Assembly (NCBI GenBank): GCA_964463045.1 | Contig: CAYXAU010000001.1 | Location: forward strand, 72,524 to 136,523 | DNA from: an uncultured Candidatus Sumerlaeota bacterium | GTDB lineage: Bacteria > Sumerlaeota > Sumerlaeia > MVZB01 > JAJFLK01 | Reading direction: 5' to 3' | DNA: 64,000 nucleotides | In this document: piece by piece, positions 46,012 to 62,120 of the stretch | Layout: each line of letters opens with the position of its first letter | Numbering within the stretch: position 1 is the first letter of the stretch | Made by a program: the position numbers and the translations under genes | Notes under the pieces: generated by a model | Seen by the model: the letters and a program-made list of their open reading frames with translations, nothing else | What the model was told of the DNA's origin: nothing | Database searches by the model: none

Positions 46012-46087
46012 GCCCAAATAGCTCAGTCGGTAGAGCACATGCATGGTAAGCATGAGGTCGCCGGTTCGATTCCGGCTTTGGGCTCCA
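46012..46087 (+). tRNA. tRNA-Thr (anticodon GGT), CCA encoded.
   Basis: Acceptor GCCCAAA pairs with TTTGGGC. The D-arm is TAGCTCAGTCGGTAGAGC, the anticodon stem-loop CATGC-ATGGTAA-GCATG, and the T-arm GCCGGTTCGATTCCGGC. A 7-bp hairpin (GCCGCTC..GAGCGGC) lies downstream. Confidence 0.85.
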
Positions 46088-47233: not shown

Positions 47234-47606
47234 GGCTCAGCGTATTCTCGCCGTCGACGACGATCCGGACGTGCTCCTGATCATTCGCACGGGCCTGACG
47301 GCCGAAGGCTACGAGGTTCAGACGGCCTCCAGCGGGCAGGAGGCCGTCGAGTCGGCGATCGCCGATCCGCCGGACCTCATCATCCTGGACGTGATGATGC
47401 CGGGGATGAGCGGCTTTGATGTCGTGCGGGAGCTTAAGCAGCACGAGTCCACGGCCACGATCCCGATCGTCATGTTGACCGGCTTTTCCGAACGCAAGCG
47501 GATCGAAGAGGCCTTGGCCAGTGGCGTCAATTACTACGTCGTCAAACCCTTCGACTTCGAGGACCTGCTCATGCGGATCAGCCAGGCCCTCGTCGGATTC
47601 GAATAA
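47232..47606 (+). CDS. Single-domain CheY-like response regulator (receiver only).
   Basis: ILAVDDDPDV, the phospho-acceptor in DLIILDVMMPGMSG, T in IVMLTG and K in YYVVKPF. 124 aa. Confidence 0.85.
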   Translation: MAQRILAVDDDPDVLLIIRTGLTAEGYEVQTASSGQEAVESAIADPPDLIILDVMMPGMSGFDVVRELKQHESTATIPIVMLTGFSERKRIEEALASGVNYYVVKPFDFEDLLMRISQALVGFE

Positions 47607-47816
47607 ACGGACCCGCCGCCCCCCTGCCGCCTCCGCATTGAATCCGACGGCTCCAATCGACGGCTTTTTGCGGTGGCCGTTGCCGTAGCCGATCGAGATA
47701 AGGTTTAATTCATTCGTAAGGCGGGAAGGGCGTCGGGCGGAACATGGCCCCGATCAGGCTCGACGCCGGCGCTGGGGCGCCGCCGTCGCGCCGCGCCCGC
47801 CTCCCCTCGTCGATCC

Positions 47817-47890
47817 GCCCCTGTAGCTCAGCAGGATAGAGCACAGGATTCCTAATCCTGGGGTCGCAGGTTCAAATCCTGCCAGGGGCG
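47817..47890 (+). tRNA. tRNA-Arg (anticodon CCT). CCA not encoded.
   Basis: Acceptor GCCCCTG pairs with CAGGGGC. The D-arm is TAGCTCAGCAGGATAGAGC, the anticodon stem-loop CAGGA-TTCCTAA-TCCTG, and the T-arm GCAGGTTCAAATCCTGC. Confidence 0.85.
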
Positions 47891-48090
47891 CCCTATCCAT
47901 TCATCCGCCGGGGGCGCCGACCGCACGCAACCTTCGCCCCGGTGAGGGACCACCCTTTGCGCGATCGAATTGCGGCTTGACAAAGCCAAGGGCGGTACTG
48001 AGAATCCCCGCGCTGGCTGAAGCCCATCAGGGATTCAAAAGGGGGCGCAGCACTGGCCAGCGGCAGGCTCCCCCCCCGAGGGCGTAACCC

Positions 48091-50628
48091 TTGCCGTCGT
48101 CGCATTGGCGCGGGCCGGGTCCAAGGCGCGTGCCTTTTTCTCTACTTCGGCCCGGCTACGACAGACTCGGCTGGGTCCGGCTCAGCTCGATCATTCTCCT
48201 GACCTTTGCCCCTGGGCGCTTGAGCGCTCAGCGTGGCGACGCGGACCTGAATCGGCGGGTGGATCGACGCGATCTCGACGCCGTCGTGGATCATCTGCTG
48301 GGTCGGTCAATGCTCGCTGGGGAGGGGCTGACGCGGGCCGACACCAATGGCGATACGATTCTGGACGTCGCCGACGCGATTGCCCTGGCCCGCGTGATCT
48401 CGCGGCCGCCGGTCGGGATCGTCGAATCATCCCCTTCGCCCGGCGAGGGAAACGTCGCCGTTACTCGGGAGACGATCATCCGGTTCGATGGAGCCGTCGA
48501 CCCTGCCACGGTCACGGGCGCTTCTGTCCGGGCGCGGTTCGGCGGCCAGGCGCTGCCCGTGCGTCTTCACGTCGCCCCCGATCGTCGCAGCCTGACCCTC
48601 TTTTATCAGGTCCCGCTGCCGGGGAGCGCTCGAATCCGCGTCCAGATTGACGGGGGGCTTCTCCTGGAAGCCGAACGCGGCTGGGGAATCGACGCCGATG
48701 GGGATGGCCGTGAGGGAGGCATCGGCGTGATTGACTTTGACACGTTGAGTCTGACGCGCGTCCCGCACACTTTCGTCTATGGGCGCGTCTTTGCTTCAGA
48801 GCTGGCGACGGCGGCAGCCCCCTCAACCGATTCGCTCAACATGCCGCTGGCGGGCGTCGTCATCACCGTCGACGGGCTGGAAACCACAGTGCGGGCGACG
48901 ACCGATCAATTCGGGAACTTCCGACTGGAGAACCCGCCCGGGGGGCGGTTCTTCGTCCATATTGATGGGCGCGCCGTGAAGACAGCTTTCGTCGATGGCC
49001 AGGCGGTCCCGACGTCCTATCCGGACGGTTTTTACTATCCATTCGTCGGCAAGAAGTTCCAATCCGTCCCCGGGCAAGAGATCAATATGGGCAATGTCTA
49101 TCTCCCGCTCGTTTATCCGGGGACGCTCCAGCCGGTCAGCGAGACCGAGGACACGACGATTACCTTCGCCCCCGGCGTGCTGGAGCGGAACCCCGAGCTG
49201 GCCGGCGTGACGGTCACGGTCCCGGCCGATTCCCTCTTCGCCGATGACGGGACGCGCGGCGGGATGGTAGGGATCGCCCCCGTGCCACCCGACCGGATCC
49301 CCGGGCCCCTCCCCCCGGAATTGAATTTTCCGATAGTGATCACCGTCCAGACCGATGGGCCCACCAATTTCGACCGCCCGATCGCCGCCTGTTTTCCGAA
49401 TGTGCCCCACCCCGTAACCGGCGAAACATTGCCCACCGGCTCCAAGAGCGCCCTCTTCAGCTTCAACCACGACACCGGCCGATTCGAGATGGTCGGGCCG
49501 ATGACCGTCAGCGACGACGGCCGGCTCGTCTGCACGGACCCCGGCATCGGCATTCCCGCCCCCGGGTGGCACGGTACCCAGCCGGGGACCTCCGGCAGTG
49601 GCGGCCCTCTTGAGGGGTCCGACGGCAGCGGCTCCGGCGACGGCGGCGGCGCCTCCGATCGCCGTCGCCCGCGGCCTAAACCTCGACCCACGCCCCCGCC
49701 CCCGACGCCGACGCCGCGCCCCCCCCCGATGAGCGACTGCAGCGTAGAAATTGCGATGCCTCTGCAGGGCATCCGGCATCCCGAGACTAAGCCGCTGGAA
49801 TTCCGCGCGATCGGGATGCCCATGCCGGGACAAATGGTGTGGTTCCTCGGGAGCGGTAATACCTGGGCCCGGCCGGATGGCTTCGACGGCGAGAGCGGGA
49901 ACGTTCAATTCTTCAACGACGTGACGCGGCTGGACAGCTCTTTGCTCCGCGTCAAATGGGAGCCGGATAAGGGCGGATTGACCTGCTACGACGACCGGAC
50001 GGTCACAATCATTCCATCGAGCAAGGCCGCCTGGGTTTTCGAATACCCCGGCAGCGATGAGACGCGGGACCTGAGCGAGCCCTTCGCCACCAATGTGGAC
50101 CGATTTTTCCACGCCCTCTTTATCGCTGCAGTCGATTACCCCTTCTCAAACCTGCGGTGGACTTTCACGTCGACGTTCCGGCCCGCCAAGCGCGCCTATC
50201 TGATGCACTTTGCGTCAAAAATATCCAGCCTGTTGATCGATGCCGAGTCCGTTCCCCCGTTCGACCCGGCGACCGTCTCTGCAGACGACCCCTTTAAGGG
50301 CTCGCTTGACATCAATTGGGTCCATTACAAGGCCAACGGGGAGCAGGATCTCTTGACCACAGTCATGGCCGCCTATGCAATGGAGTCGGCTTATGGAATC
50401 GTTTATCCGCCCGCTTTGCAATCCCGACATACTCAAGGGTTGGCAATTGATGTGAAGATCCTCTGGGACGACGACTTCAGCATTAAGCTACCGGACGGCT
50501 CCCTCATGCCCATCCCGAAGAACCCTGGAAACGGCGCTCAAAGCACCGCGCTCCATGCGGCCGGCGCGACCTTCGGCGTCATCAAGCTCGGCAGCGATCC
50601 TCCCCACTGGTCCAGCGACGGCCATTGA
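48091..50628 (+). CDS. Large secreted multidomain protein: dockerin-like Ca-binding pair, Ig/cadherin-like, carboxypeptidase-regulatory-like, Gly/Pro-rich linker and a C-terminal peptidase-M15-like (VanY/hedgehog-type) domain.
   Basis: Dockerin-type repeats are [22 protein letters not shown] and [58 protein letters not shown] is CarboxypepD_reg-like. The linker is [35 protein letters not shown]. The C-terminal [12 protein letters not shown] matches the M15 SxHxxGxAxD motif. Confidence 0.75.
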
Positions 50629-53249
50629 TGCATCCCCTTCGCCCCTCGATCCCCTGCCTGAAGCCGCACCGACCCCCGGCATATCTGGGTATTCTGGTGT
50701 TCTTTGCCGGAGTTCAAGCCCGCGCCCAGGAGCTTCCGCCCTTTGCCCCGGAACCTGAACGCCAACTTGGACTCCACTATTATTCCGTCCAGAATCTCTT
50801 CACGGGCCAGGTTATCCGCCGGGGGATTACCGGGAGCAACGGCATCGCCCACGATCAGGTTATCCTGGCGCCGAACACCCCTTACCGGGAAGGCATTCTG
50901 CAGGCGGCTACGCTTAAAGTCGGATTCTCGGAGTTCACGACGCCGGGGAGCGGCGAGCGGTTTGAGTTCCCCAGGATTCTCGTCAAGCCTGACGCGATGC
51001 CCGACACCGATGGCGATGGCCTCGGCGCGTTCGGCGAGTTCATCATCGGCACCGACCCCACCAACCCCGACACCGACGGCGATGGCATCCGGGACGGCGT
51101 CGAAGTCCAACAGGGCCTGGACCCGCTGGACGGTCTCATCGCCCGGACCGGGTTGATTGCCTCCGTGGATACCCCCGGCGCGGCCGCCGATGTGTGTGCC
51201 GTCAACGACGTGGCCATCGTGGCCGATTCGGAGCTCGGGGTCTCTATCTTCAACGTCTTCAACGGGATGAACCCCGTCATCATCGGCCAAGTGGACACCC
51301 CGGGGATCGCCCAACGGGTCGGCTGCTCCGGCACCCTGATCGCCGTGGCTGATGGACCGGCCGGCCTCGCCATCATCGACATCGCCGATCCGCCCGCGGC
51401 CCGGCGGCTGCATCAGATCAACCTGGGGTTCGCTCAGGCCGTCGCCGCTGCGGCCGGCGTCGCCTATGTCGGGCTCGATTCAGGGCTCCTGGTCTCTGTG
51501 GAGATGGCATCCGGGCTGCGGATCGACGCCGTCAGCCTGCCGGGCGCCGTGGGTGATCTCTTATTGAGTGGGGATCATCTTTACGCATTGGCGGGGAACA
51601 CGCTGGTCGTGCTCGCTTACGCCTCGGGGTTGCTGGCCCCCCTCAGCTCGACGGCCTCCCCGACGCCTGGCGGCTTGCCTTCCGAGCGCATTTTCATTGG
51701 CGGGGGGATCGGTTACGTCGTCCACGGGACGGGGTATAACACCTTCGACCTGAATAACCCGCTCATGCCCACCCTGATCGCGGTCGGGAACACCCTGCAA
51801 CGGGGATGGAGACACCTGGTCCCGAACGGCTCCGGCCTCGGCGTGGCCGCGGCCTCCCCCAACGTGGGTTTTGACAGCGCATCCAATCTGCAACTTTACG
51901 ATCTGCGCGATCCCTCCCAGACGAATGCGTTCGTGACGGAATTTGAAACTCCCGGGGTCGCCCGCGCGGTGGCCATCTATAATGGCCTGGCCTACGTCGC
52001 GGATCACTTCCATGGGATGCAGGTGATCAATTATCTCGCCTACGACGCGCTGGGAACCTCCCCAACGCTGGACCTGGCGGCTGGTTTTTCCCTCGATCCG
52101 CCCACCGCCGAGGAAGGTCAGCTTGCCCGCGTCACGGCCGTCGTCGCCGACGACGTGCAGGTGCGAAACGTTGAGTTTTACCTCGATGGCGTCAAAGCCG
52201 CCACCGACGGAAATTTCCCCTTCGAGCATCGCTTCGTGGCCCCCTCCCTCGCGGCTCGACCGAGCTTCACTCTGCGGGCCCGGGCAAGCGATACCGGTGG
52301 GAACTTCACCTGGACCCCCGAGATCACGGTAATGCTGACGCCCGACGTGACGGGACCGACCGTCACACGGGTCCTTCCCGCCCACCGAACGGCCATCTTC
52401 GGTCCCCTGCGGAGCGTCGCCGCTTTCTTCAACGAGCCGATGGACGTCTCGACGTTGACCTCCGGCGCCTTCACGTTGACCGAGTTCGGTCCGGACGGAA
52501 GGGCGGGGACGCCGGACGACGTGGCCGTCACACGGGGCGACGTCGAGTTCCGACCGGATGTCCTGGGCGCCTTCATGAATTTCACACCGGAGCTGCGCCG
52601 GGGGATTTATCTCGCCCGCGTCTCACCCCCCGCCGCCGACGTCGCGGGTAACCTTTTGGCGATCCCCCGCTCCTGGCGGTTCATCGTCTTGACCTCCGAC
52701 AATGACCGGGACGGCGATTGCATCCCCGACGCCGTTGAGACCGCCGTCGGTCTGGATCCCGATAATCGCGACACCGACGGCGACGGAATCCCCGACGGTG
52801 AGGAGGACCTCGACGGCGATGGGGTCAACAATTGTCTTGAGGCCCTGCTGGGATTGAACCTGGCCGACGCCGACAGCGATAACGACGGCATTGCCGACCG
52901 GGACGAAGATCAGGACGGTGATGAACTCAAAGATTGGGAGGAGCTGCTGAATGGGACCCGGATTAACGGTGTTGATACCGACGGCGACGGCGTCAGTGAC
53001 GGGGACGAAGTCCGAGCCGGCACCGATCCGACGGACCCGTCATCCTCGCCTCTGACGTTTGCGTATGTCCGAGTGGCTATTGTCAATGCGGTCCATCCGG
53101 CGGCGCTGACCGGCCGCTTCGTCGGTGGGCCGGTCTCCACGCTCAACGCGGCCTCGCCCGAGGCGACGCTGGGACAAGTCTTCGGACCCGTCTTCAGTCT
53201 TGAGAATCTCTCCGAACCCATGAGTCAAGGAGGAGTATCAAAGCCATGA
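50628..53249 (+). CDS. Large secreted protein with LVIVD beta-propeller repeats, thrombospondin-type-3-like DxDxDG Ca-binding repeats and an Ig-like domain.
   Basis: ATG at 50628 overlaps the upstream TGA (TGATG). The signal peptide is [20 protein letters not shown]-type repeats include [31 protein letters not shown] and [18 protein letters not shown]3-like runs are [25 protein letters not shown] and [11 protein letters not shown]...[50 protein letters not shown]. Confidence 0.75.
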
Positions 53250-54484
53250 AAGCCGCTCTTGCACCGATGCGAGCCCCGCTGCGCCTCATATCAATCGCTT
53301 GTGTTTTCACCACTTCGGTGATGCAGGCCCTGGCCCAGTTTTCTTCCGGTTCGACCGGGGCCGACGGGGCCCTAGACATCCTCGACCCGGGAACGCCGAC
53401 AACTATCGTCTTCGATCCGGCGGTGGGGGATATCCGGCTCGACCCTGACGGTGATAACGTCTACCACTTTACGACGATCACGATCCCCGCCAACGTCACG
53501 CTCCGCCTGGGCGCCGACGTCCTGGGTCATACCCCCGTCCATTGGCTCGCCAGCGGGGCCGTCCGCATCGAGGGAACGCTCGACCTGAACGGGCAAGCGG
53601 GCCACGCCTGTGGCCAGCCGCCGGTGCCGGGGATCGCTGGGGCCGGCGGCTTCAACGGCGGGCCGGCGGCGTCGGAGAGCGCGTCGGGCAGCGCCGGCGA
53701 CGGTCCAGGCGGCGCGAGATATCCCGGTGGGGGATTCGATCATGCGGGTCATGTCACCGCCAACGGTGGCGCAATCTATGGGAATCTTTATCTCATGCCG
53801 CTGATCGGAGGGTCCGGCGGCGCCGGCAATGGCGGGCCGCCGGGCGCGGGAGGGGGCGGCGGCGGCGGGGCAATTCTTATCGCCAGCGACGTCTCTATTG
53901 ATCTTCCTATGGGGGGTTCGATCCGGGCCAACGGAGGCAACGCAGGGCAACAGTGCACCTCGGACGGAACCCGTGGGGGGGCGGGCAGCGGGGGGGCCAT
54001 CCGTCTTATGGCTCCCCGGGTCACGATCGGCGGTTCCCTGAGCGCCACGGGGGGGGCGGCCCCTTTTTCGTCGGCTTCGGTCGGGCGGATTCGGATCGAA
54101 TCCTTCCAACGAACGCTCGCCGGGGCTTCCATCTCGCCGGGAGCCTCCTTTGGCGTCCCCTTCCAGGTTTTCCCTCCGGTCAGCGGGCCCACCGTCCGCG
54201 TCGTTTCGGTCGCCGGCGTTGCCGTGATTCCGTCCCCCACGGGAAGCTTTCAGATGCCGGATGTGACGATCGAGGCCGTTTCGGCCGTCCCGGTCGAATT
54301 GAGCGCTTCCAACGTTCCCCCCGGCACCATTCTCAACCTCCGATTCGTCCCGGAGACCGGCGACGTCATCACGGCCATGTCTTCGCCCCTCATGGGGTCC
54401 TTCGCCGATTCAACGGCCTCGGCGAGCGTCACCTTTCCGCGAGGCTTCAGCCGGGGGTACATTCTGGCCACCTGGACGCCATAG
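53246..54484 (+). CDS. Secreted Gly-rich protein, probably a right-handed beta-helix/adhesin-like fold.
   Basis: ATG overlaps the upstream stop (ATGA). AGGAGG sits 11 nt upstream. The signal peptide is [30 protein letters not shown]. The long [21 protein letters not shown] and (G/A/S)-rich stretches are interspersed with hydrophobic beta-strand-like segments. Confidence 0.65.
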
Positions 54485-54526
54485 CGACGATTGAAGCCGC
54501 GACGGGGTTGAGCCATAAGGGGCGCC

Positions 54527-55432
54527 GTGATCCCGCGGTTTGGTCTGATCATCGGCGCCATGAAATCGGGGACGACGAGTCTCTATGAATACCTGGCGCA
54601 ACATCCGGCGATCTGTCGCTGCCGGGGTAAAGAGCCGGACTTCTTCGTCGACGAAGCCCGTTGGGGATCGAGCCGATTCGAGCCGTCGGCCGCCGAACCC
54701 TGCTCTCCCGCCCCGAGTGCGTCCGAAATCGAGAACCTGAGAGCGGCGTACGAGGCCCTCTGGCCGTGGGACCCCAGCCGCCATGAGATCGCCCTCGAAG
54801 CCTCCACGAGCTGCACCAAAACGCCGGTGATGCCCAATGTCGCCGCCCGGATCGCCGCCCTCGGGCTGCCGGCGCGATTTATCTATGTCATGCGCGACCC
54901 GATCGAGCGGATCGAATCCCACTACACCCATGGCCTGGCCGCGGGCTGGCTGCGCCCTCCCGGGGGGCCGACGCTGGACGCTCACGTCCTCGCCGTCACC
55001 TCCTATGCCCGCCAGATCGCCGAGTTTTATCAACGGTTCCCTCCTTCGGATATCCTCCTGGTGCGTTTTGAGGATTTCGTCCGTTCGCCCGGAGCGGTCC
55101 TGCGGCGGGTTTCCGCCTTTCTCGGCGTGGACCCCGAATACGCATTTCGGGGGCTCGGCCGAGCCCACAACCGCAACCTGGGCCGGCCCGTCAGCGACGG
55201 TCCCCTTTATCGCGCCTGGCGTCGCCTGCCGCTCCTTCCGGCGCTTGCTCGACGTCTGCTCCCGGAGCGGCCGCGGGCTTTCGTTCGCGGCCGATTGGGC
55301 CGCCGGATCACCACGGTCTGCCGCCTGACCCCGGAGCAGCGGGCTTGGGCCCTGGAGGCCCTCGCCGATGACCTCGAGCGACTCCGGACGGAATTCGGCG
55401 TGGACCCGAGTGGCTGGAATCTCGTCCCTTAG
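54527..55432 (+). CDS. Sulfotransferase-family protein (PAPS-dependent).
   Basis: LIIGAMKSGTTSL is the 5'-PSB P-loop. YVMRDPIERIESHY is the 3'-PB RDP motif. Cytoplasmic, 301 aa. Confidence 0.75.
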   Translation: MIPRFGLIIGAMKSGTTSLYEYLAQHPAICRCRGKEPDFFVDEARWGSSRFEPSAAEPCSPAPSASEIENLRAAYEALWPWDPSRHEIALEASTSCTKTPVMPNVAARIAALGLPARFIYVMRDPIERIESHYTHGLAAGWLRPPGGPTLDAHVLAVTSYARQIAEFYQRFPPSDILLVRFEDFVRSPGAVLRRVSAFLGVDPEYAFRGLGRAHNRNLGRPVSDGPLYRAWRRLPLLPALARRLLPERPRAFVRGRLGRRITTVCRLTPEQRAWALEALADDLERLRTEFGVDPSGWNLVP

Positions 55433-55456
55433 CTTGGCAGTCCGAAAGGATTACTT

Positions 55457-57991
55457 TCACGTCCGCCCATTGTCGGCCATCATTTCGAGAAAGGCCTTGA
55501 CTATGTCGGGGTCGAAATGAGAGCCGGCCCCCGAGGCGATGTGCTCGCGGATTTTTTCGGCCGCCCAGGCGGGCCGATACGGCCGGTCGGAATGGAGCGC
55601 GTCCCAGACGTCCACGACGGCAAAAATCCGCGCCGCCAGGGGAATCTGGTCCCCCTTCAACCCCCGGGGATACCCCTTGCCGTCCCACCGCTCATGGTGG
55701 CAATAGGGAATGTCCAGCGCCGGTCGAAGATAAGCGATAGGGGAGAGGAGCGCGTGGGCGTAGTCGGGGTGCTTGCGCATGATGATCCATTCGTCGTCGG
55801 TCAGGGGCCCGGGCTTGAGGAGAATGCTGTCCGGAATCCCCATCTTGCCGATGTCGTGGAGCAACGCCCCGCGGCGGATCTGGACCAGTTCGGCGCTGGC
55901 GATCCCCATCCGCCCGGCCAGCCGGACGGTCATTTCCGTGACCCGCTCGGTGTGCCCTTCGGTCTCCTTGTCGCGCAGATCGAGCGCGCGGGACCAGCCC
56001 AGGAGCGTCGTTTCGTAGGCCAAGGAGAGATCGGCGTTGGACCGCTGGAGATTCTCAAAAAGGGTCGCGTTATCGATCGCGATCGCGGCCTGACCGGCCA
56101 GCGCTTCCAGAAATTCGATCCATTCCTCGTCGGGCCGGAGCTCCGAGCGGTGAAAAATTTCCATCACCCCCGCGATCAGCCCCTTGGTCACCAATGGGAC
56201 GCCGCAGTAGGCGATAAATCCTTCCCCCTTCAGCGTGGCCAGGCGTTCGTGCGCCGCCGGATCGCCGTCGGCCCCGACCCAGAAGTCGGCCCGTTGACGT
56301 TCCAGGGCCACCCGGCCGGGAAGGCCTTCCCCCAGCCGGAAGCTCGATCGCCGGATCGCCTCACCGGTGAAGCCTCGACCGGCGCTGTAATCGAGGTTCA
56401 ACGTATGGGGATTGAGCAGCAAGACGGCCGCGGCGTCGACCCCGAGCTGATTGACGACTTGATCTAGGACGACGCTCAGGGTGACGCGAAGATCAAGACT
56501 CCCGCTGATGGCCAGGTCGATCCGTCGGAGCGCCCCGAGGCGATTCAGTTGGCGACGTATTTTTTCTTCGGCCCGCCGCCGGGGGGTGACGTCCTCGATG
56601 GTTCCTTCAAATTGAAGATTCGCAGGGCGGCTGTCGACATGGGCGCGGATGTTGGCTGAGAGCCAGATCGGGCCCCCGTCTTTCCGCCGCGCCTCGAACT
56701 CGAAGGCCTTGAGACTCCCCTCGGCGCGCAGGCCGCGCAGAAACTCCTCGTAGCGGTGGGGATCGAGGAAGAGTTCCTTACCGACGTTCTTCACCCTGGA
56801 GATCAGTTCCCTGGGCGATTCGTAACCCAGGATGCGCGCCAGCGCCTCGTTGGCCACGAGGAATCCGTCGTCGGCCACCGCCTGGAAAATCCCCTCAACC
56901 GAGTTCTCGAAGATTGAACGATAACGTTCCTCGGCCTGCCTCAGACGTTGAACCAACGAGGCCTCGGCGATCGTGGGGGCGGCCAGGCCGGCCAGGAGAT
57001 TGAGCGCCTTCACGTGACGCAGCGTAAAGGCCCGCGCCCGTTTCGTGGCGTTGACGTTGAGCACGCCGACCAGGTTCCCCCCGGTCATCAGGGGCACCGA
57101 AATGGCCGAGTGAACCTCCGGCCGCGGCGCCTCCGGCTCAAATCGATCGTCGTCCACTTTGCCCTGCAAGAGCACCGCCTGGCGCGTCCGGGCGACCCAA
57201 CCCGCGATGCCCGCTTCGATCGGCACGCGGTGGCCGAGAATTTGTTGGCGCGCCTCGCCCCGGATGGCGACGACCGTCAGTTGATCCTCCCCCGGCAGCG
57301 GCATCATCACCGAGACTTCGTCCGCCTCGACCTGCTGGAGCGCCGCCTCGGCCACGCGGCCCACGATCGTGTTGGGGTCCAGCGTGAAGGCGATCGCCTG
57401 GCAGAGTTGATAGACGCCGACCGTCTCGCGCAGCTCCAGGTTTTCCTGCCGGAGCCGCCGGACCTCCGTCGCTCGCGTCAACAACGGCAAGAGCCCCGCC
57501 AGTTTGAACGGCTTGAGGATATAATCGAACGCCCCCCGCTTCATCGCTTCGACGGCCGTCTGGACGGTCCCCTGGCCGGTCATCATGATCATGACCAGGT
57601 CCTGATCCATCTCCAAAGCCGCCTTCATCACGGTCAGCCCGTCCATCCCCGGCATCATGAGGTCGACCATCAGGATGTCGAAGGCTTCAGCCTTGAGCGT
57701 CTCCAGCGCCTGCCGCCCGTTATCGAATCCGCGCGTTTCGTAACCCTGACGCGCCAACGCCTCGACGAGGGTCACCATCAGCTCTCTCTCGTCGTCCACG
57801 ACGAGAATGCGTCCGAGGGGGGCCGCCGCCGGCGCGCCCTCCGGGACGGCGGCCCCCGGCGCCGACCGGCGGGCCTGATGCCCGATCACGATCGGGTCGG
57901 TCGTCGCCGATTTCGGGATTTCCCCCCCCGAAGGGTTCATGTCGGGCCCGGTCATCTTCGTTCCCCTTCCCGCCAGCGCGTCGGCTTTCAT
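55457..57991 (-). CDS. Response regulator with REC-GAF-PAS-GAF-HD-GYP architecture (c-di-GMP phosphodiesterase type).
   Basis: The receiver is ILVVDDERELM...DLMMPGMDG. Two GAF-like regions and a PAS motif (YRSIFENSVEGIF) follow. The C-terminus carries LLHDIGKMGIP ... HHERWDGKGYPRGL (HD and GYP motifs). Confidence 0.85.
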   Translation of the reverse strand: MKADALAGRGTKMTGPDMNPSGGEIPKSATTDPIVIGHQARRSAPGAAVPEGAPAAAPLGRILVVDDERELMVTLVEALARQGYETRGFDNGRQALETLKAEAFDILMVDLMMPGMDGLTVMKAALEMDQDLVMIMMTGQGTVQTAVEAMKRGAFDYILKPFKLAGLLPLLTRATEVRRLRQENLELRETVGVYQLCQAIAFTLDPNTIVGRVAEAALQQVEADEVSVMMPLPGEDQLTVVAIRGEARQQILGHRVPIEAGIAGWVARTRQAVLLQGKVDDDRFEPEAPRPEVHSAISVPLMTGGNLVGVLNVNATKRARAFTLRHVKALNLLAGLAAPTIAEASLVQRLRQAEERYRSIFENSVEGIFQAVADDGFLVANEALARILGYESPRELISRVKNVGKELFLDPHRYEEFLRGLRAEGSLKAFEFEARRKDGGPIWLSANIRAHVDSRPANLQFEGTIEDVTPRRRAEEKIRRQLNRLGALRRIDLAISGSLDLRVTLSVVLDQVVNQLGVDAAAVLLLNPHTLNLDYSAGRGFTGEAIRRSSFRLGEGLPGRVALERQRADFWVGADGDPAAHERLATLKGEGFIAYCGVPLVTKGLIAGVMEIFHRSELRPDEEWIEFLEALAGQAAIAIDNATLFENLQRSNADLSLAYETTLLGWSRALDLRDKETEGHTERVTEMTVRLAGRMGIASAELVQIRRGALLHDIGKMGIPDSILLKPGPLTDDEWIIMRKHPDYAHALLSPIAYLRPALDIPYCHHERWDGKGYPRGLKGDQIPLAARIFAVVDVWDALHSDRPYRPAWAAEKIREHIASGAGSHFDPDIVKAFLEMMADNGRT

Positions 57992-59025
57992 TCAAAATCC
58001 TTCCAGGAGGAGTTGTTCCCATTGTGCGACATCGGCAGAACGACCCGCACGGTCGTTCCCTGGCTCACTTGGCTCAGAACCTCGATCGATCCGCCGTGCT
58101 CGGTCACAATCCGGCGGCAGATGGCCAGGCCGAGGCCCGTCCCCTGCCCCTCCGGCTTGGTCGTGAAGAACGGTTCCATCACCTGGGCGAGGGCCTCCGG
58201 CGGGATGCCCACGCCGTCGTCGATGAATTCGATCGTGTAGGCTGAGGGCATCCCCCCGGTCGCCGGAGCGCGCTCGGGGCTGTCGCCAGGCCTTTCGGCG
58301 ATCCGGATTTCGAGGACGCCTCCGTCGTTCATCGCGTCGGCCGCGTTGAGAATGATATTGAGGAAGACCTGGCGGAGCTGTTCTCGGTCGGCCAGCACCA
58401 TGGCCGGTCGTTCCGGATCGATGCGTTTGACGCTGACCCGCCGCTTGCGCAGGTGGTACTGGATCAATTCGAGCGTTCGGCCGACCTCCTCGCGCAAGTC
58501 GACCGTGGAGATCTGGCGCTCGCCCCGCCGGCCGAATTGCAGCAGGTTCGCCACCAATTGGCTCATCCGATCCAGCTCGGCTTCCATGATCCTCAACGGC
58601 TCTCGCGCCGGATCGTCCTCCGGTGTTTGTCCCAGCAGACCCTCCACCCGGAGCGTCACCGTCCCCAGCGGATTGTTGAGTTCGTGGGCGATGCTGGCGG
58701 CCAGCTCCCCGATCGCGGCGAGTTTGGAAGCGTGCCAGAGCTGGCCCGAAATGCTGCGCAGCTCTTCATTCTTGGCTTCGAGCTGGGCCGTCCGCTCCAC
58801 CACCCGATCTTCGAGCTCGATGGTCAACTGCAGGAGCTCGGAATTGCTCCTTTGCAACTCCTCTTGCAGCGCGCGTAGCTCGGCCGTGCGTTCCTCGACG
58901 CGCCGCTCCAGCTCAAGCGTCAGGGCGAGCAAGCCGCGATTGGTCTCGGCGAGCTCCTGTTCCAGCTCGACGATCCGGCGGCCGGCCTCTTCCAGCGTCG
59001 CGAGCGTCTCCGGGGCGGCCATCAT
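57988..59025 (-). CDS. Cytoplasmic sensor histidine kinase (coiled-coil, HisKA, HATPase_c).
   Basis: Heptad-rich N-terminus. SIAHELNNPL is the H-box. The N, G1 and G2 boxes are NIILNAADAM, DDGVGI and GTGLGLAI. Its stop overlaps the start of the HD-GYP regulator (ATGA). Confidence 0.85.
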   Translation of the reverse strand: MMAAPETLATLEEAGRRIVELEQELAETNRGLLALTLELERRVEERTAELRALQEELQRSNSELLQLTIELEDRVVERTAQLEAKNEELRSISGQLWHASKLAAIGELAASIAHELNNPLGTVTLRVEGLLGQTPEDDPAREPLRIMEAELDRMSQLVANLLQFGRRGERQISTVDLREEVGRTLELIQYHLRKRRVSVKRIDPERPAMVLADREQLRQVFLNIILNAADAMNDGGVLEIRIAERPGDSPERAPATGGMPSAYTIEFIDDGVGIPPEALAQVMEPFFTTKPEGQGTGLGLAICRRIVTEHGGSIEVLSQVSQGTTVRVVLPMSHNGNNSSWKDFE

Positions 59026-60065
59026 GCGGCGCTCTTGACGACCAGGACGGTCGCGTCGTCATCGTCGCGCCCGAGGCGCTTAAGCAGCGTTTCGGCGATC
59101 CGCGCCGCCGGGGCATCCCGCAGGCCGGGGAAGTCCGTCCACTTCCAGCGGGGGTCAAGCCCGTCGGAGGCCAGGATGAGCATATCGCCGGGGACCCAGA
59201 GAGAATCGAGCGGTCGGGGCAGCGTGCTCGAAAAGCCGACGATGCCTCGAGGGAACGAAAGATGTGACGTCTCCTCGGCGCGAGCGAAGCGGACCTCGAC
59301 GTTGCCCAGGGCCGCCACGCTCAGCCGGACCCCGCCGACCGGCAGCGCCGTCGGCTCGGCGACCTCAAATCGGGCGACGGCCATGACGACCCCCCGCGTG
59401 GGCCGGCAGGCGCGCGCCGTCCCTCGAAAGAGCGCCTCGACGGGCTCCTCCCGATGCATCTCCAGATAGTGACGCGCCGTCTCAGCGGCCCGGTGAGCAA
59501 AGGCCCCGTGGCCGAGACCGTCCACTACGCCCGCCAACGCCCCTCCCTTCCATCGGCAGGCCACGAAGGAATCCCCGTTGATCGTCATGCCGGCGTGGGG
59601 GCGGGTGGCGACGCCGAAGTGCAGCGGGATCGCCGCGGGGGCCCCCGATCGCCGGTCGTGAATCCAGCGCCGTCCGCGCAGGCGCAGCCCCGCCTCCGCC
59701 CCTTCCCTCAAGCCCACCTCGAGTTCGTCCAACAGCCGGTTGACGGCCCCCAAGCCGCATCCGAGGCTGCCCGTCGTCGTAAAGCCGTCGCCGATCGCCG
59801 CTTCGGGATCGGCGAGACCGGGCCCCTCGTCGGTCGCTTCAATCTCCACTCCAGGGTTCCCGTCGCGCTCGACCGGACGGAGCGCCAAGGCGCCGCGGCG
59901 GGCGTGCTTGACGATGTTGGAAGCCAATTCGGAGATGACGATGGCGATCTCCTCGGCTTCGGGTTCGTCAAAGCCGATCCGAGAGGCGAGCTCGCGCCCG
60001 GCGCGGCGCGCTTCAGCGGCGTCGGCCCGATTGGCGATTTCGAAATCATGCGCTTCGGGTTTCAT
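59022..60065 (-). CDS. Fusion of an RsbW/RsbT-like HATPase_c (anti-sigma kinase-type) N-domain with a PP2C (SpoIIE/RsbX-like) phosphatase C-domain.
   Basis: Start set at the internal ATG (MKPEAHDFEI...). The N-domain EEIAIVISELASNIVKHA ... DEGPGL is GHKL-type. The C-domain GDSFVACRW...DGLGHG...ILASDGL carries the PP2C metal-binding Asp. The track ORF extends 153 codons further upstream through a low-complexity Arg/Gly-rich region. Confidence 0.7.
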   Translation of the reverse strand: MKPEAHDFEIANRADAAEARRAGRELASRIGFDEPEAEEIAIVISELASNIVKHARRGALALRPVERDGNPGVEIEATDEGPGLADPEAAIGDGFTTTGSLGCGLGAVNRLLDELEVGLREGAEAGLRLRGRRWIHDRRSGAPAAIPLHFGVATRPHAGMTINGDSFVACRWKGGALAGVVDGLGHGAFAHRAAETARHYLEMHREEPVEALFRGTARACRPTRGVVMAVARFEVAEPTALPVGGVRLSVAALGNVEVRFARAEETSHLSFPRGIVGFSSTLPRPLDSLWVPGDMLILASDGLDPRWKWTDFPGLRDAPAARIAETLLKRLGRDDDDATVLVVKSAA

Positions 60066-60190
60066 CCACCTTTTTCCGTCACGAATTCTGCGTCTCCGTC
60101 GGGCGCGATCCCCGATGACGCCCGGAAAGATCGCGCGGGGGCGCGCCCGGGGCGACGCGAGAGGGGCTCCGCCACCCCGCGGCGTCGCGA

Positions 60191-60619
60191 TCACGCCCTC
60201 AGCCATTTTCTCAACGTAATGCGCGTCCCCTTGCCGGCCTCGGTCTGGATCTCCATCTGGTCCATGAGCCGGCGCGCGCCCGGAAGGCCCAGCCCCAACC
60301 CCCCCGAGGTCGAGAACCCCTCTTCCAGCGCCCGATCGATATCGGCTATGCCCGGCCCGGCGTCCTCGAACGACAGTTCCAGGGCCGTGCGGCCGTTCTC
60401 CTCGAAGGCCCGCATCCGCATCGTCCCCTCGCCCGCGTAAAGGAAGATGTTGCGGGCGAGTTCGGAGGCCGCCGTCACGATGCGCGTTACGTCGGTCAGG
60501 CCGAAGCCGATCGCTCGGGCCCATTCCCGAACGGACCGTCGCGCCGCCACGATGTCCCCCTCGGCGCGGATCACCACCTCCGGCGGCAGCGCCTGGTCAA
60601 CCATGGAGAGTCCATCCAT
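60191..60619 (-). CDS. RsbT-like anti-sigma regulatory kinase (GHKL ATPase).
   Basis: 142 aa. Motifs are AASELARNIFLYA, FEDAGPGI and GGLGLGL. Confidence 0.8.
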   Translation of the reverse strand: MDGLSMVDQALPPEVVIRAEGDIVAARRSVREWARAIGFGLTDVTRIVTAASELARNIFLYAGEGTMRMRAFEENGRTALELSFEDAGPGIADIDRALEEGFSTSGGLGLGLPGARRLMDQMEIQTEAGKGTRITLRKWLRA

Positions 60620-60979
60620 TCAGTGAGCGTCCCTGAGGCAGGCCAGGGCATGGTCGGCGTCGAGCGCCGTGGCGGCTCCGCCGAGAGTCAGGCCGAGCTG
60701 GGTGGCCGTCAGCGCCACGCTGGGGCGCATGCCGACGATGATCGTGCGGCCCCCCATGAGGGCCACCATCCGGCCGGTTTCGGCCACGGTCCGGGCGAAG
60801 AATGAATCGAGCGTTTCGACGGAGGAAATGTCGAGCACCAGCCCCCGGGCTTCAAAACGCTCCATCGCCTGGAGCGTATCTTCCTGCAGCGCCGTCACCG
60901 TCCGATCATCCGGATCGGGCGGCATCGTCACCATCAGCACGTCCCCCACCTTGACCACCGAGATCGCGACGTTAGACAT
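60620..60979 (-). CDS. STAS-domain protein (RsbS-like anti-sigma-factor antagonist).
   Basis: 119 aa. The GLVLDISSVETLDSFFART region holds the phosphorylatable Ser. It sits directly upstream of the RsbT-like gene. Confidence 0.8.
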   Translation of the reverse strand: MSNVAISVVKVGDVLMVTMPPDPDDRTVTALQEDTLQAMERFEARGLVLDISSVETLDSFFARTVAETGRMVALMGGRTIIVGMRPSVALTATQLGLTLGGAATALDADHALACLRDAH

Positions 60980-61023
60980 GGCCTTTTACCTCCCTGGCGG
61001 GGACGTCGCCACAGCCCGGGTCC

Positions 61024-61983
61024 TTATGGAGCGGCGGCCGCCGTGGCCGCCAGTTGGTGGGAATTTGCCCGTTGGAGCTGGAAGCCCAGCACGTCCAGCC
61101 CCATCTGAAGCCCCGATCGCAGCGAGGGGCGCGTCGTGACTTGAGGCAGGTCGATCCCCAGATGGACGAGCGTCTGGGCGATCGACGGGCGCACGCCGGT
61201 CAGGATCGCCTGCGCGCCCAGGAGCCGCACGGCCGTGATGCACTCGACCAGATGGCGCGCCGTCTGCGTGTCGATGGCCGGCACGCCCGTGATGTCGATC
61301 AGCGCCACCGGCGAGTTCGTCTCGACGACCTTTTCGAGCAGCCGCTCCATGAACTGTTGGGTCCGCTCGCTGTCGAGCGTGCCGATGAGCGGGGCGACGA
61401 TGATCCCCTCCCAGATCTGAATCACGGGCGTCGAGAGCTCCAGAATCTCGCGCGCCTGGCGGGAGATCACCTCTTCGGCGGCCAGGAAATAGGCCGTCGA
61501 GGTCAGCTCTTTGTCCAGGGACACGATCTTGATGACGGCCAGGAGGGCGCGCATGGCCTTGGCGGAGTCCTTCTCCAGGGCGCGATGAATCCGGGGCAGG
61601 AGCATCTGAAGATAGATTGAGTATTCGGCCATCGACCAGCGGAGCGACATCCCGAGACGTTGGTGCCCGCGTCCGAATTCGATCCGGTCGAGCAGATAGC
61701 CCTCGCCGTACTCGCCGCCCGTCAGGCCCCGGAACGACCGTCGCAGGGCCTCTTTGGAGTTGTTCAAAATGGTCTCGTTGTGGAAGAGCGCCCGGGCTTC
61801 ATCGTATTTCATGAAGCGGGCATAGATTTCCTTGACGATCTCCTCGACGCACCCGTCGGCGGTGGGCCGCACCTCCCGGAGCAAGGCCACGTCGTCGTCG
61901 GTGAATCCGACGAAGCTTTTACGGCTCTCCCACTCTTTCAGAGTGATCGCGCCGCTGGACCGCGCTTTTGTCTCCGTGACCAT
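61024..61983 (-). CDS. RsbR-like stressosome scaffold: N-terminal non-haem globin sensor domain plus C-terminal STAS domain.
   Basis: The N-terminus FTDDDVALLREVRPTADGCVEEIVKEIYARFMKYDEARALF is the globin-coupled-sensor type. The C-terminus VIQIWEGIIVAPLIGTLDSERTQQFMERLL...VALIDITGV is STAS. ATG at 61983. Confidence 0.8.
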   Translation of the reverse strand: MVTETKARSSGAITLKEWESRKSFVGFTDDDVALLREVRPTADGCVEEIVKEIYARFMKYDEARALFHNETILNNSKEALRRSFRGLTGGEYGEGYLLDRIEFGRGHQRLGMSLRWSMAEYSIYLQMLLPRIHRALEKDSAKAMRALLAVIKIVSLDKELTSTAYFLAAEEVISRQAREILELSTPVIQIWEGIIVAPLIGTLDSERTQQFMERLLEKVVETNSPVALIDITGVPAIDTQTARHLVECITAVRLLGAQAILTGVRPSIAQTLVHLGIDLPQVTTRPSLRSGLQMGLDVLGFQLQRANSHQLAATAAAAP

Positions 61984-62120
61984 GGGACAATCCTCCTCTT
62001 GTTCCCTTCGCGCCCGAGCGATGGATGTAAAGTCCGAACCCGCAACAAACATTCTACGACCGGGCCGTCCCCACCGAGCAAGTAAAATCTATATTAAAAA
62101 AAGTTGTGTTCCTTTTTCGT

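Follow-up and report, generated by a model that had tools for sequence, protein, structure and literature searches.

A group of four genes occupies positions 48091-55432 of a 64,000-nucleotide (nt) stretch of DNA from an uncultured Candidatus Sumerlaeota bacterium (contig CAYXAU010000001.1), and this whole stretch is called the window throughout. All four genes lie on the plus strand, and the first three, which encode exported proteins, are the subject of this work. In the list of open reading frames (ORFs), gene 1 (48091..50628) starts with TTG, ends with a TGA stop at 50626-50628 and encodes 845 amino acids (aa); gene 2 (50628..53249) and gene 3 (53246..54484) start with ATG and encode 873 and 412 aa, respectively; and gene 4 (54527..55432), with a GTG start, encodes a 301-aa cytoplasmic sulfotransferase of the 3'-phosphoadenosine 5'-phosphosulfate (PAPS) type. 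A GAGGG motif is located 8 nt 5' of the TTG codon at 48091. An alternative start of gene 1 is the GTG at 48130, which gives 832 aa, and public gene calls list either 832 or 772 aa.

At the junction of genes 1 and 2 the sequence TGATG (50626-50630) makes the ATG of gene 2 share one base with the stop of gene 1, and genes 2 and 3 overlap in ATGA (53246-53249), with an AGGAGG Shine-Dalgarno sequence for gene 3 at 53228..53233, within the end of gene 2 and 12 nt before the ATGA. The ORFs, both overlaps and the AGGAGG were confirmed from the sequence as they had been described in the original prediction. These tight overlaps are peculiar to this copy, since the orthologous locus L005 has the same gene order with gaps of 79 and 47 nt. 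Gene 3 is separated from gene 4 by 42 nt, and a convergent gene is located 3' of gene 4. Because the same four genes are present on four independent metagenome assemblies, and homologues of genes 1, 2 and 3 number in the hundreds or thousands for each gene, at very strong E-values, the four ORFs are real genes and not chance ORFs of high-GC (guanine and cytosine) DNA. Proteins 1, 2 and 3 start with a basic, hydrophobic, Ala-x-Ala-like type I signal peptide, read by eye from the sequence. They had been announced as three giant secreted proteins: at 412-873 aa they are not giant, but they are exported, calcium-binding and multidomain.

Architecture of the three exported proteins

After its signal peptide, gene 1 encodes a dockerin-like head, a conserved segment that we call the N-module, a linker, a small immunoglobulin (Ig)-like domain and a peptidase of the LAS/M15 type. 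The head (residues 48-104; 48232..48402) contains two tandem EF-hand-like calcium-binding loop-helix segments within residues 50-100. Against Dockerin_1 (PF00404) it scored 14.1 bits (E=0.057), below the Pfam cut-off of 22.9. It could also be aligned by phmmer (E=0.0056) with the chain named 'Serine protease' of PDB entry 8x39, in a segment that carries dockerin-like D-x-D/N-x-D/N-G loops. The orthologue P0002, 52% identical over 96% of gene 1, has precomputed matches to Dockerin_1 (PF00404), Big_5 and CarboxypepD_reg, and the gene 1 relative in locus L049 passes the Dockerin_1 cut-off (38.5 bits, E=1.3e-9). The N-module (residues 109-500; 48415..49590) consists of a Big_5 domain with a significant Pfam match (E=5e-6), a DADGDG loop, a CarboxypepD_reg-like domain that stayed below threshold (22.9 bits against a cut-off of 32.3, E=1e-4), and an unannotated beta domain of about 200 aa that terminates in the motif ...DPGxGIxxPGWHG. 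As read from the sequence, a Gly/Ser- and then Pro-rich linker (residues 496-546; 49576..49728) and a small Cys-flanked beta domain (residues 547-640; 49729..50010) precede the peptidase.

The C-terminal domain (residues 641-845; 50011..50625) was recognized by a zinc-site motif followed by DPPHW. The zinc ligands of M15/LAS enzymes are arranged as His-x(3-6)-Asp ... His, and the VanY type is marked by SxHxxGxAxD and ExxH. The central motif of the gene 1 domain fits the VanY/M15 signature SxHxxGxAxD, DPPH fits [DE]xxH, and a conserved Arg motif precedes both. In an alignment of 42 sequences of this domain the residues R57, R61, H140, D147, H199 and W200 were invariant. The AlphaFold2 (AF2) model of the domain has a predicted local distance difference test score (pLDDT) of 94.5, and its top 12 Foldseek matches in the PDB all belong to LAS/M15 enzymes, Ply500, VanY, LdcB, ChiX and VanX, which are thus its sole coherent fold matches, although with weak scores (E from 0.009 to about 1, template-modelling (TM) score 0.3-0.5). 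Sequence searches gave no match for the domain: no Pfam match was obtained even at E<=10 with four homologues searched, no PDB sequence was matched by phmmer with the single sequence or with a 42-sequence profile, and no match was found in PHROGs. When the domain was compared by hhalign with the region of protein P0097 that has a precomputed Pfam assignment to Peptidase_M15_3, the zinc motif fell on SLHIYGRAVDIS; the metal motif alone was aligned, and the match was not significant (E=0.098). The M15 assignment made in the original prediction thus stands as far as the zinc motif and a model matching LAS/M15 enzymes alone are concerned, but not at the level of Pfam or PDB sequence matches or of strong fold scores. 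From the motif and the model, the C-terminal domain is very probably a divergent LAS-type zinc peptidase lying outside every curated M15 family. A total of 418 homologues were collected, mostly stand-alone proteins of 180-200 aa without a Pfam domain, which do not extend over the beta domain of residues 547-640 (68% query coverage); a few are fused to PG_binding_1, PAAR (PF05488) or PF13699.

Gene 2 encodes a signal peptide, an N-terminal domain with TSP3 repeats, an LVIVD beta-propeller, Big_7 and Big_5 domains and a C-terminal TSP3 array. Tandem DxDxDG repeats form two clusters at about residues 125-170 and 700-810, and TSP3_bac (PF18884) was matched in three stretches with 63 bits against a cut-off of 25 (E=2e-17). 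The propeller (51153-52097) yielded a single LVIVD repeat (PF08309) at 20.1 bits, against a cut-off of 20.2, and the same family is found above the cut-off in relatives, namely in the gene 2 orthologue of L049 (37.1 bits) and in P0371 and P0372 (35-37 bits). Big_7 and Big_5 (52098-52727) were matched with E=2e-6 and 6e-5, respectively, and the C-terminal array (52728-53246) with TSP3_bac. Overall, TSP3, Big_5, Big_7 and the sulfotransferase passed their Pfam thresholds, whereas LVIVD, dockerin and CarboxypepD_reg were below threshold here and passed in orthologues.

The protein encoded by gene 3 had been proposed to be a Gly-rich beta-helix, and its AF2 model (pLDDT 87.4) agrees: a signal peptide is followed by a Gly-rich beta-helix and then, at the C terminus (about 54191-54469), by an Ig-like sandwich. 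No match to Pfam, NCBIfam or PHROG was detected. The family comprises more than 2,737 proteins, none of them with a Pfam domain, and all of the source-named members are called 'hypothetical'. The model had no significant match in the PDB, the best being the GH110A beta-helix (E=0.02). In BFVD it matched uncharacterised Gly-rich beta-helix phage proteins (E=1e-6), and then tailspike and pectate-lyase-like proteins. Two other roles were considered for this protein. An outer-membrane barrel or a transporter of the two-partner-secretion type was ruled out, the model being a beta-helix with an Ig-like sandwich, and so was an immunity protein, the product being exported, 412 aa long and present with every payload type described below.

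The scaffold family and its gene order

Gene 1 is widely conserved in its first half only, residues of about 109-495 being 50-60% identical to at least 259 proteins. An exhaustive scan of 1.84 billion cluster representatives yielded 905 clusters with the N-module at E<=1e-30, a count of about 900 that applies to clustering at the 50% identity level. The median length of these proteins is about 1,400 aa, and the hosts named include Verrucomicrobiota, Planctomycetota, Omnitrophica, Poribacteria, Sumerlaeota, Anaerolineae, Acidobacteriota and Kiritimatiellae. The junction ...DPGxGIxxPGWHG was found by regular expression in 91 of the 120 best matches, several of the remainder being truncated, and downstream of PGWHG the family sequences are unrelated to each other. 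The junction expression allowed 74 tails with a length of 150 aa or more to be extracted from these 120 matches, and 20 of the 74 carry the same LAS-like peptidase as gene 1. Other tails contain phospholipase A2 (PLA2), DUF6531 with RHS, DUF900, HH_signal, Peptidase_M15_3, Cys-rich repeats or no known family; an alpha/beta hydrolase is also among the payloads, and those of the Rhs/DUF6531 type, of about 2,300 aa, begin at the same junction. Some sequences pass from PGWHG directly into a TSP3/LVIVD/Big_7 body like that of gene 2, and long forms of the propeller protein continue with CARDB or FG-GAP domains. At the sequence level, the family thus combines a scaffold that is conserved with payloads that are exchanged at a single junction.

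The gene order was then scored in 80 metagenome loci fetched with the N-module profile, by means of hidden Markov models built for the analysis. The core of gene 2 follows the N-module on the same strand in 53 of the 55 informative loci, and in 43 of these 53 it belongs to the same ORF. Since fusion is the usual state, the window holds a split form of what is mostly a single polypeptide, with the break just after the payload and with gene 2 having gained its own signal peptide. Relatives of the Rhs type are split alike, a gene-2-like gene overlapping or abutting the payload gene. Of six loci of this type, five have that gene either overlapping the payload gene or starting at most 85 nt after it, and in the remaining one a cohesin-like ORF occupies the space between the two. 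A conserved small ORF was not seen near the payload genes of these six loci, and in the window gene 2 overlaps gene 1.

A homologue of gene 3 follows in 18 of 39 informative loci, and, as we read the tabulated loci, in about 14 of the roughly 18 that have the short propeller form ending in TSP3 repeats, as here. The order of genes 1, 2 and 3 is kept in L005, with the same peptidase and a protein 52% identical to that of gene 1, in L009, with PLA2, and in L014 and L034, while in L008 genes 1 and 2 are fused and gene 3 is next. The three genes are therefore conserved as neighbours in distant genomes, as the original prediction had supposed. Additionally, one metagenome-assembled genome (MAG) of Verrucomicrobiales carries three cassettes with different content (L014, L037). 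A cohesin gene, the expected partner of a dockerin, is located directly after the gene 3 homologue in at least six loci, namely L005 (6e-7), L021 (9.5e-10), L023 (9e-4), L049, L101 and L113; the search for such a partner thus succeeded in several related loci but not in the window.

Several further observations were made in these loci. The protein after the gene 3 homologue in L021 (11254-16818; 1,854 aa) combines cohesin with a caspase-like Peptidase_C14 and DUF7619. Most members of the N-module family have another small beta domain where the dockerin sits. In P0064, P0417, P0379 and P0383 the N-terminus is a beta domain of about 90 aa, with the pattern ...RLsWP..GFxLE....W....FFRLR, in place of the dockerin, and a similar domain (...RFYR...) ends the cohesin proteins located after gene 3 in L005 (16914-17627) and L023 (11097-11849); by its distribution in these sequences it may be a second pairing or anchoring module. 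A vanadium-haloperoxidase-like protein of about 500 aa (VCPO_N/PAP2/VCPO_2nd) adjoins the cassette in at least eight contigs: L005 (17953-19479, minus strand), L009 (15887-17398), L064, L080, L101, L106, L111 and L113. These proteins are mostly 45-60% identical to each other, L064-L066 look like one locus copied, and the gene is absent from this window. Three loci have the N-module and the propeller in separate ORFs without an intervening payload: in L039 and L058 one in-frame stop divides them, and in L112 they are separated by a frame shift with overlap; these splits could be stop-codon read-through, pseudogenes or assembly errors. In L009 (11975-12364) the gene-2-like frame opens while the called PLA2-bearing gene still has about 340 nt to run, and in another frame, which suggests a frameshift between the two genes, either programmed or an error.

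The gene 3 family is also found without the N-module in Proteobacteria, Acidobacteriota and Nitrospirota, between very large exported proteins of the Ig, cadherin or Rhs type. In nine loci from these groups (L011, L012, L016, L020, L022, L024, L029, L032 and L038) a longer gene-3-like protein of about 450-550 aa is followed by a protein of 1,400-2,650 aa and mostly preceded by one of about 1,000-1,300 aa, which has a TIG domain in the one scanned (L011). The three giant downstream partners that were scanned contain Big_7, fn3 and CarboxypepD_reg (L011), cadherin and Big_9 (L016), or TIG, CarboxypepD_reg, DUF6531 and RHS (L029). Judging by these neighbourhoods, the gene 3 beta-helix family is a general companion of giant exported proteins. 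Culturable carriers of a gene of this family include Tahibacter soli BL (L033) and Dyella sp. ASV24 (L030).

Proposed function and alternative explanations

Genes 1-3 represent, in split form, a cassette that is widespread but uncharacterised and that encodes surface proteins exported by Sec and binding calcium. As a rule it is a single polypeptide with a variable head, the N-module, an optional payload and a body of TSP3 repeats, LVIVD propeller, Big_7, Big_5 and TSP3 repeats. Here, gene 1 supplies the head, the N-module and the zinc LAS peptidase, gene 2 the propeller body and gene 3 the beta-helix partner. The three products would assemble on the surface of the producer, the dockerin-like head tethering the complex to a cohesin protein whose gene would lie elsewhere. 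Neighbouring cells or their remains might be bound by way of the propeller, Ig, TSP3 and beta-helix parts, and the peptidase would then be presented to cut the peptide stems of the peptidoglycan of neighbouring cells. Peptidoglycan peptidases, phospholipases, Rhs cages and alpha/beta hydrolases are classes that bacteria use against the envelopes of other cells. Since the payloads on this scaffold (peptidoglycan peptidase, PLA2, Rhs and alpha/beta hydrolase) fall into these same classes, we infer a role in envelope attack, and a probability of about 0.5 is given to the surface display of envelope-attacking effectors as the function of the cassette; the surface location, the three-protein assembly, the target and the antagonistic role are all parts of this proposal, whereas the gene structure, the architecture of the family, the exchange of payloads, the gene order and the intact metal-binding motif are shown by the sequences.

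The proposal is closest to the polymorphic toxin systems of the Rhs and CdiA types, which are reportedly reviewed in Zhang et al. 2012 and Ruhe et al. 2020, both cited in PMC13018210. As in those systems, a conserved N-terminal part ends at a sharp junction motif, PGWHG in this case, after which unrelated and swappable effectors are attached; the payload classes (peptidoglycan hydrolase, phospholipase, Rhs-encased toxins) are alike, and several cassettes can occur in one genome. The cassette differs in that no adjacent immunity gene was found and no type V, VI or VII machinery is nearby, the loci examined containing no secretion system genes, in that the payload sometimes lies mid-polypeptide, before the large propeller body, and in that the literature searched does not describe the N-module or the beta-helix partner as trafficking domains. 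Bacterial teneurin-like proteins set a precedent, being polymorphic toxins that are exported by Sec and displayed on the surface with no injection machine of their own (PMC13018210). With them and with the Tc/Rhs toxins that have a YD shell, the cassette shares the character of a Sec-exported surface toxin carrier, variable N-terminal adhesion or anchoring modules, a beta-propeller and the lack of an obvious delivery machine, and relatives of gene 1 carry DUF6531 and RHS after the same N-module. However, a YD shell, an FN-plug and an NHL propeller are all missing from gene 1, the propeller here is of the LVIVD type and on a separate gene, and teneurin-like proteins have immunity genes. No Pfam match to RHS_repeat or DUF6531 was detected in the products of genes 1-3, both being found only in relatives that share the N-module. 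The N-module might conceivably be the bacterial counterpart of the teneurin TTR and FN-plug domains; a 23-sequence profile matched no teneurin or Tc structure by sequence.

Several results weigh against this proposal. No cohesin gene was detected by tblastn within the 64-kb window, and the dockerin-like head is present in just about one fifth to one third of the N-module proteins, as estimated by regular expression. No immunity-like small gene was found beside the payload, either here or in the Rhs-type loci. The LAS assignment rests on the motif together with weak fold scores (best E=0.009, TM 0.3-0.5). The stand-alone homologues of the peptidase, as read from the alignment, have no evident N-terminal signal peptide, and two of them are located in ordinary chromosomal neighbourhoods whose contexts gave no functional hint; since these homologues look unsecreted and lie in ordinary contexts, the peptidase domain is not toxic as such. 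Finally, the PLA2 payload is internal in P0041 and P0372, in line between the N-module and the propeller, and not C-terminal.

The lack of an immunity gene is also a point in favour of a different explanation, in which hydrolases tethered by dockerin and cohesin, as in a cellulosome, break down dead microbes, their walls and membranes serving as food, without killing live competitors. The dockerin-like head of gene 1, the cohesin genes at related loci, the predominance of hydrolases among the recognisable payloads and the environmental hosts (MAGs of Verrucomicrobiota, Planctomycetota, Omnitrophica, Poribacteria, Anaerolineae and Acidobacteriota) are all consistent with scavenging of this kind. 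Cohesin-dockerin assemblies do resemble the cassette in the duplicated EF-hand-like dockerin segment at the mature N-terminus and in the cohesin genes after the gene 3 homologue in related loci, but here the dockerin is below its cut-off, the window has no cohesin gene, most relatives have another head and there are no glycoside hydrolases. The Rhs/DUF6531 payloads of about 2,300 aa share the same junction, and Rhs cages enclose toxins and not digestive enzymes; PAAR is a marker of type VI effectors, and the peptidase domain is also found fused to it; and the carbohydrate-active or proteolytic payloads typical of polymer degraders are absent from those seen. Scavenging is regarded as unlikely.

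A complex acting on the envelope of the producer itself, remodelling it through the trimming of D-Ala-D-Ala or stem peptides, with the sulfotransferase modifying a surface glycan or one of these proteins, is judged more unlikely still. It would account for the tight gene coupling and for a sulfotransferase gene 42 nt 3' on the same strand with no terminator found. LAS enzymes of the VanY and LdcB types trim the cell's own peptidoglycan, and they are among the fold matches, while stand-alone homologues of the peptidase occur in housekeeping contexts. Nevertheless, nothing links the peptidase to D-Ala-D-Ala processing of the own wall, as the original prediction had suggested, and the sulfotransferase is missing from every other related locus and lacks a signal peptide although its supposed substrates are exported. 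A housekeeping wall role does not explain the PLA2, Rhs and lipase-like payloads carried elsewhere by the same scaffold, and three differing cassettes in one MAG (L014, L037) are typical of accessory and not of core genes. Least credible, and in our view improbable, is a pure adhesin or matrix protein, in which the propeller, Ig, TSP3 and beta-helix parts provide cohesion and the peptidase-like domain binds peptidoglycan without being an enzyme. Family members without any payload are the most frequent (43 fused forms, most of which have a short junction), the long forms have adhesion-type CARDB and FG-GAP domains, and the Myxococcus CglD and MtsD models are matched by the TSP3 repeats, with scores far under threshold. 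By contrast, all 42 sequences share H140, D147, H199 and the two Arg residues, which points to a conserved active site, and the diversity of payloads is enzymatic or toxin-like.

The display of envelope-attacking effectors can be extended to a broader and more tentative claim, which we consider possible though doubtful: that the N-module, the LVIVD body and the beta-helix partner, joined in some loci by cohesin and VCPO/PAP2 neighbours, constitute an unrecognised Sec-dependent platform for the presentation or delivery of effectors, operating without type V, VI or VII machinery or adjacent immunity genes and spread widely among environmental phyla such as Verrucomicrobiota, Planctomycetota and Omnitrophica. 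The literature searched on LVIVD, DUF6531 or polymorphic toxins with dockerin contained no description of this cassette, and the combination of an N-module with a PGWHG junction, an obligate LVIVD body and a beta-helix partner appears to be undescribed. Most of the knowledge of interbacterial weapons comes from Proteobacteria, Firmicutes and dedicated secretion machines. The scaffold reported here is very common and yet wholly unannotated, all of the source-named members being 'hypothetical' or 'Ig-like domain-containing', and it appears to serve environmental phyla that have received little study as a carrier of swappable effectors of the peptidoglycan, lipid and Rhs types. If the proposal is true, it would provide a new trafficking or presentation module for polymorphic effectors, a function for a large beta-helix family without a Pfam model, and a non-cellulosomal use of dockerin-cohesin pairs. 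In that case the PGWHG junction could also be used to mine new effector domains, many of the tails belonging to no known family. If it fails, a well-defined new family of surface proteins deserving a domain model would still remain.

The sulfotransferase and the flanking regions

The product of gene 4 matched Sulfotransfer_3 (PF13469; 72.2 bits, 9e-20) and Sulfotransfer_1 (PF00685; 49.6 bits, 4.5e-13), and the motifs AMKSGTTSL (5'-phosphosulfate-binding, KSGTT) and MRDPIERI (3'-phosphate-binding, RDPxxR) were read from its sequence. A functional link with genes 1-3 had been proposed for it. The gene was not found in 117 of the 121 fetched loci, its sole carriers being four copies of this contig, and its membership in the cassette was ruled out by this absence from all other related loci. 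The sulfotransferase gene is thus an unrelated downstream neighbour, possibly co-transcribed with genes 1-3 in this organism only.

Upstream of gene 1, a tRNA-Thr(GGT) gene (46012-46087) and a tRNA-Arg(CCT) gene (47816-47893) were located, the latter about 200 nt 5' of gene 1. Between tRNA-Arg(CCT) and gene 1, a promoter-like site (TTGACA-17-GAGAAT; 47977..48005, plus strand) was the sole match in 47500-55800, against 1.4 expected by chance; its position is sensible, but the match is not significant. In the related locus L010 the gene 3 homologue is followed by a phage-type integrase. Mobile elements that insert at tRNA genes may carry the cassette.

On the other side, the minus strand of the window at 55457-62100 carries a signalling cluster convergent with the sulfotransferase gene. 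According to the precomputed Pfam assignments, it encodes an 844-aa response-regulator/GAF/GAF/HD-type protein, a HisKA/HATPase kinase, two HATPase_c_2 (RsbW-like) proteins, a STAS protein and a protoglobin-STAS protein. By its domain content, this cluster looks like a partner-switching module with a haem sensor.

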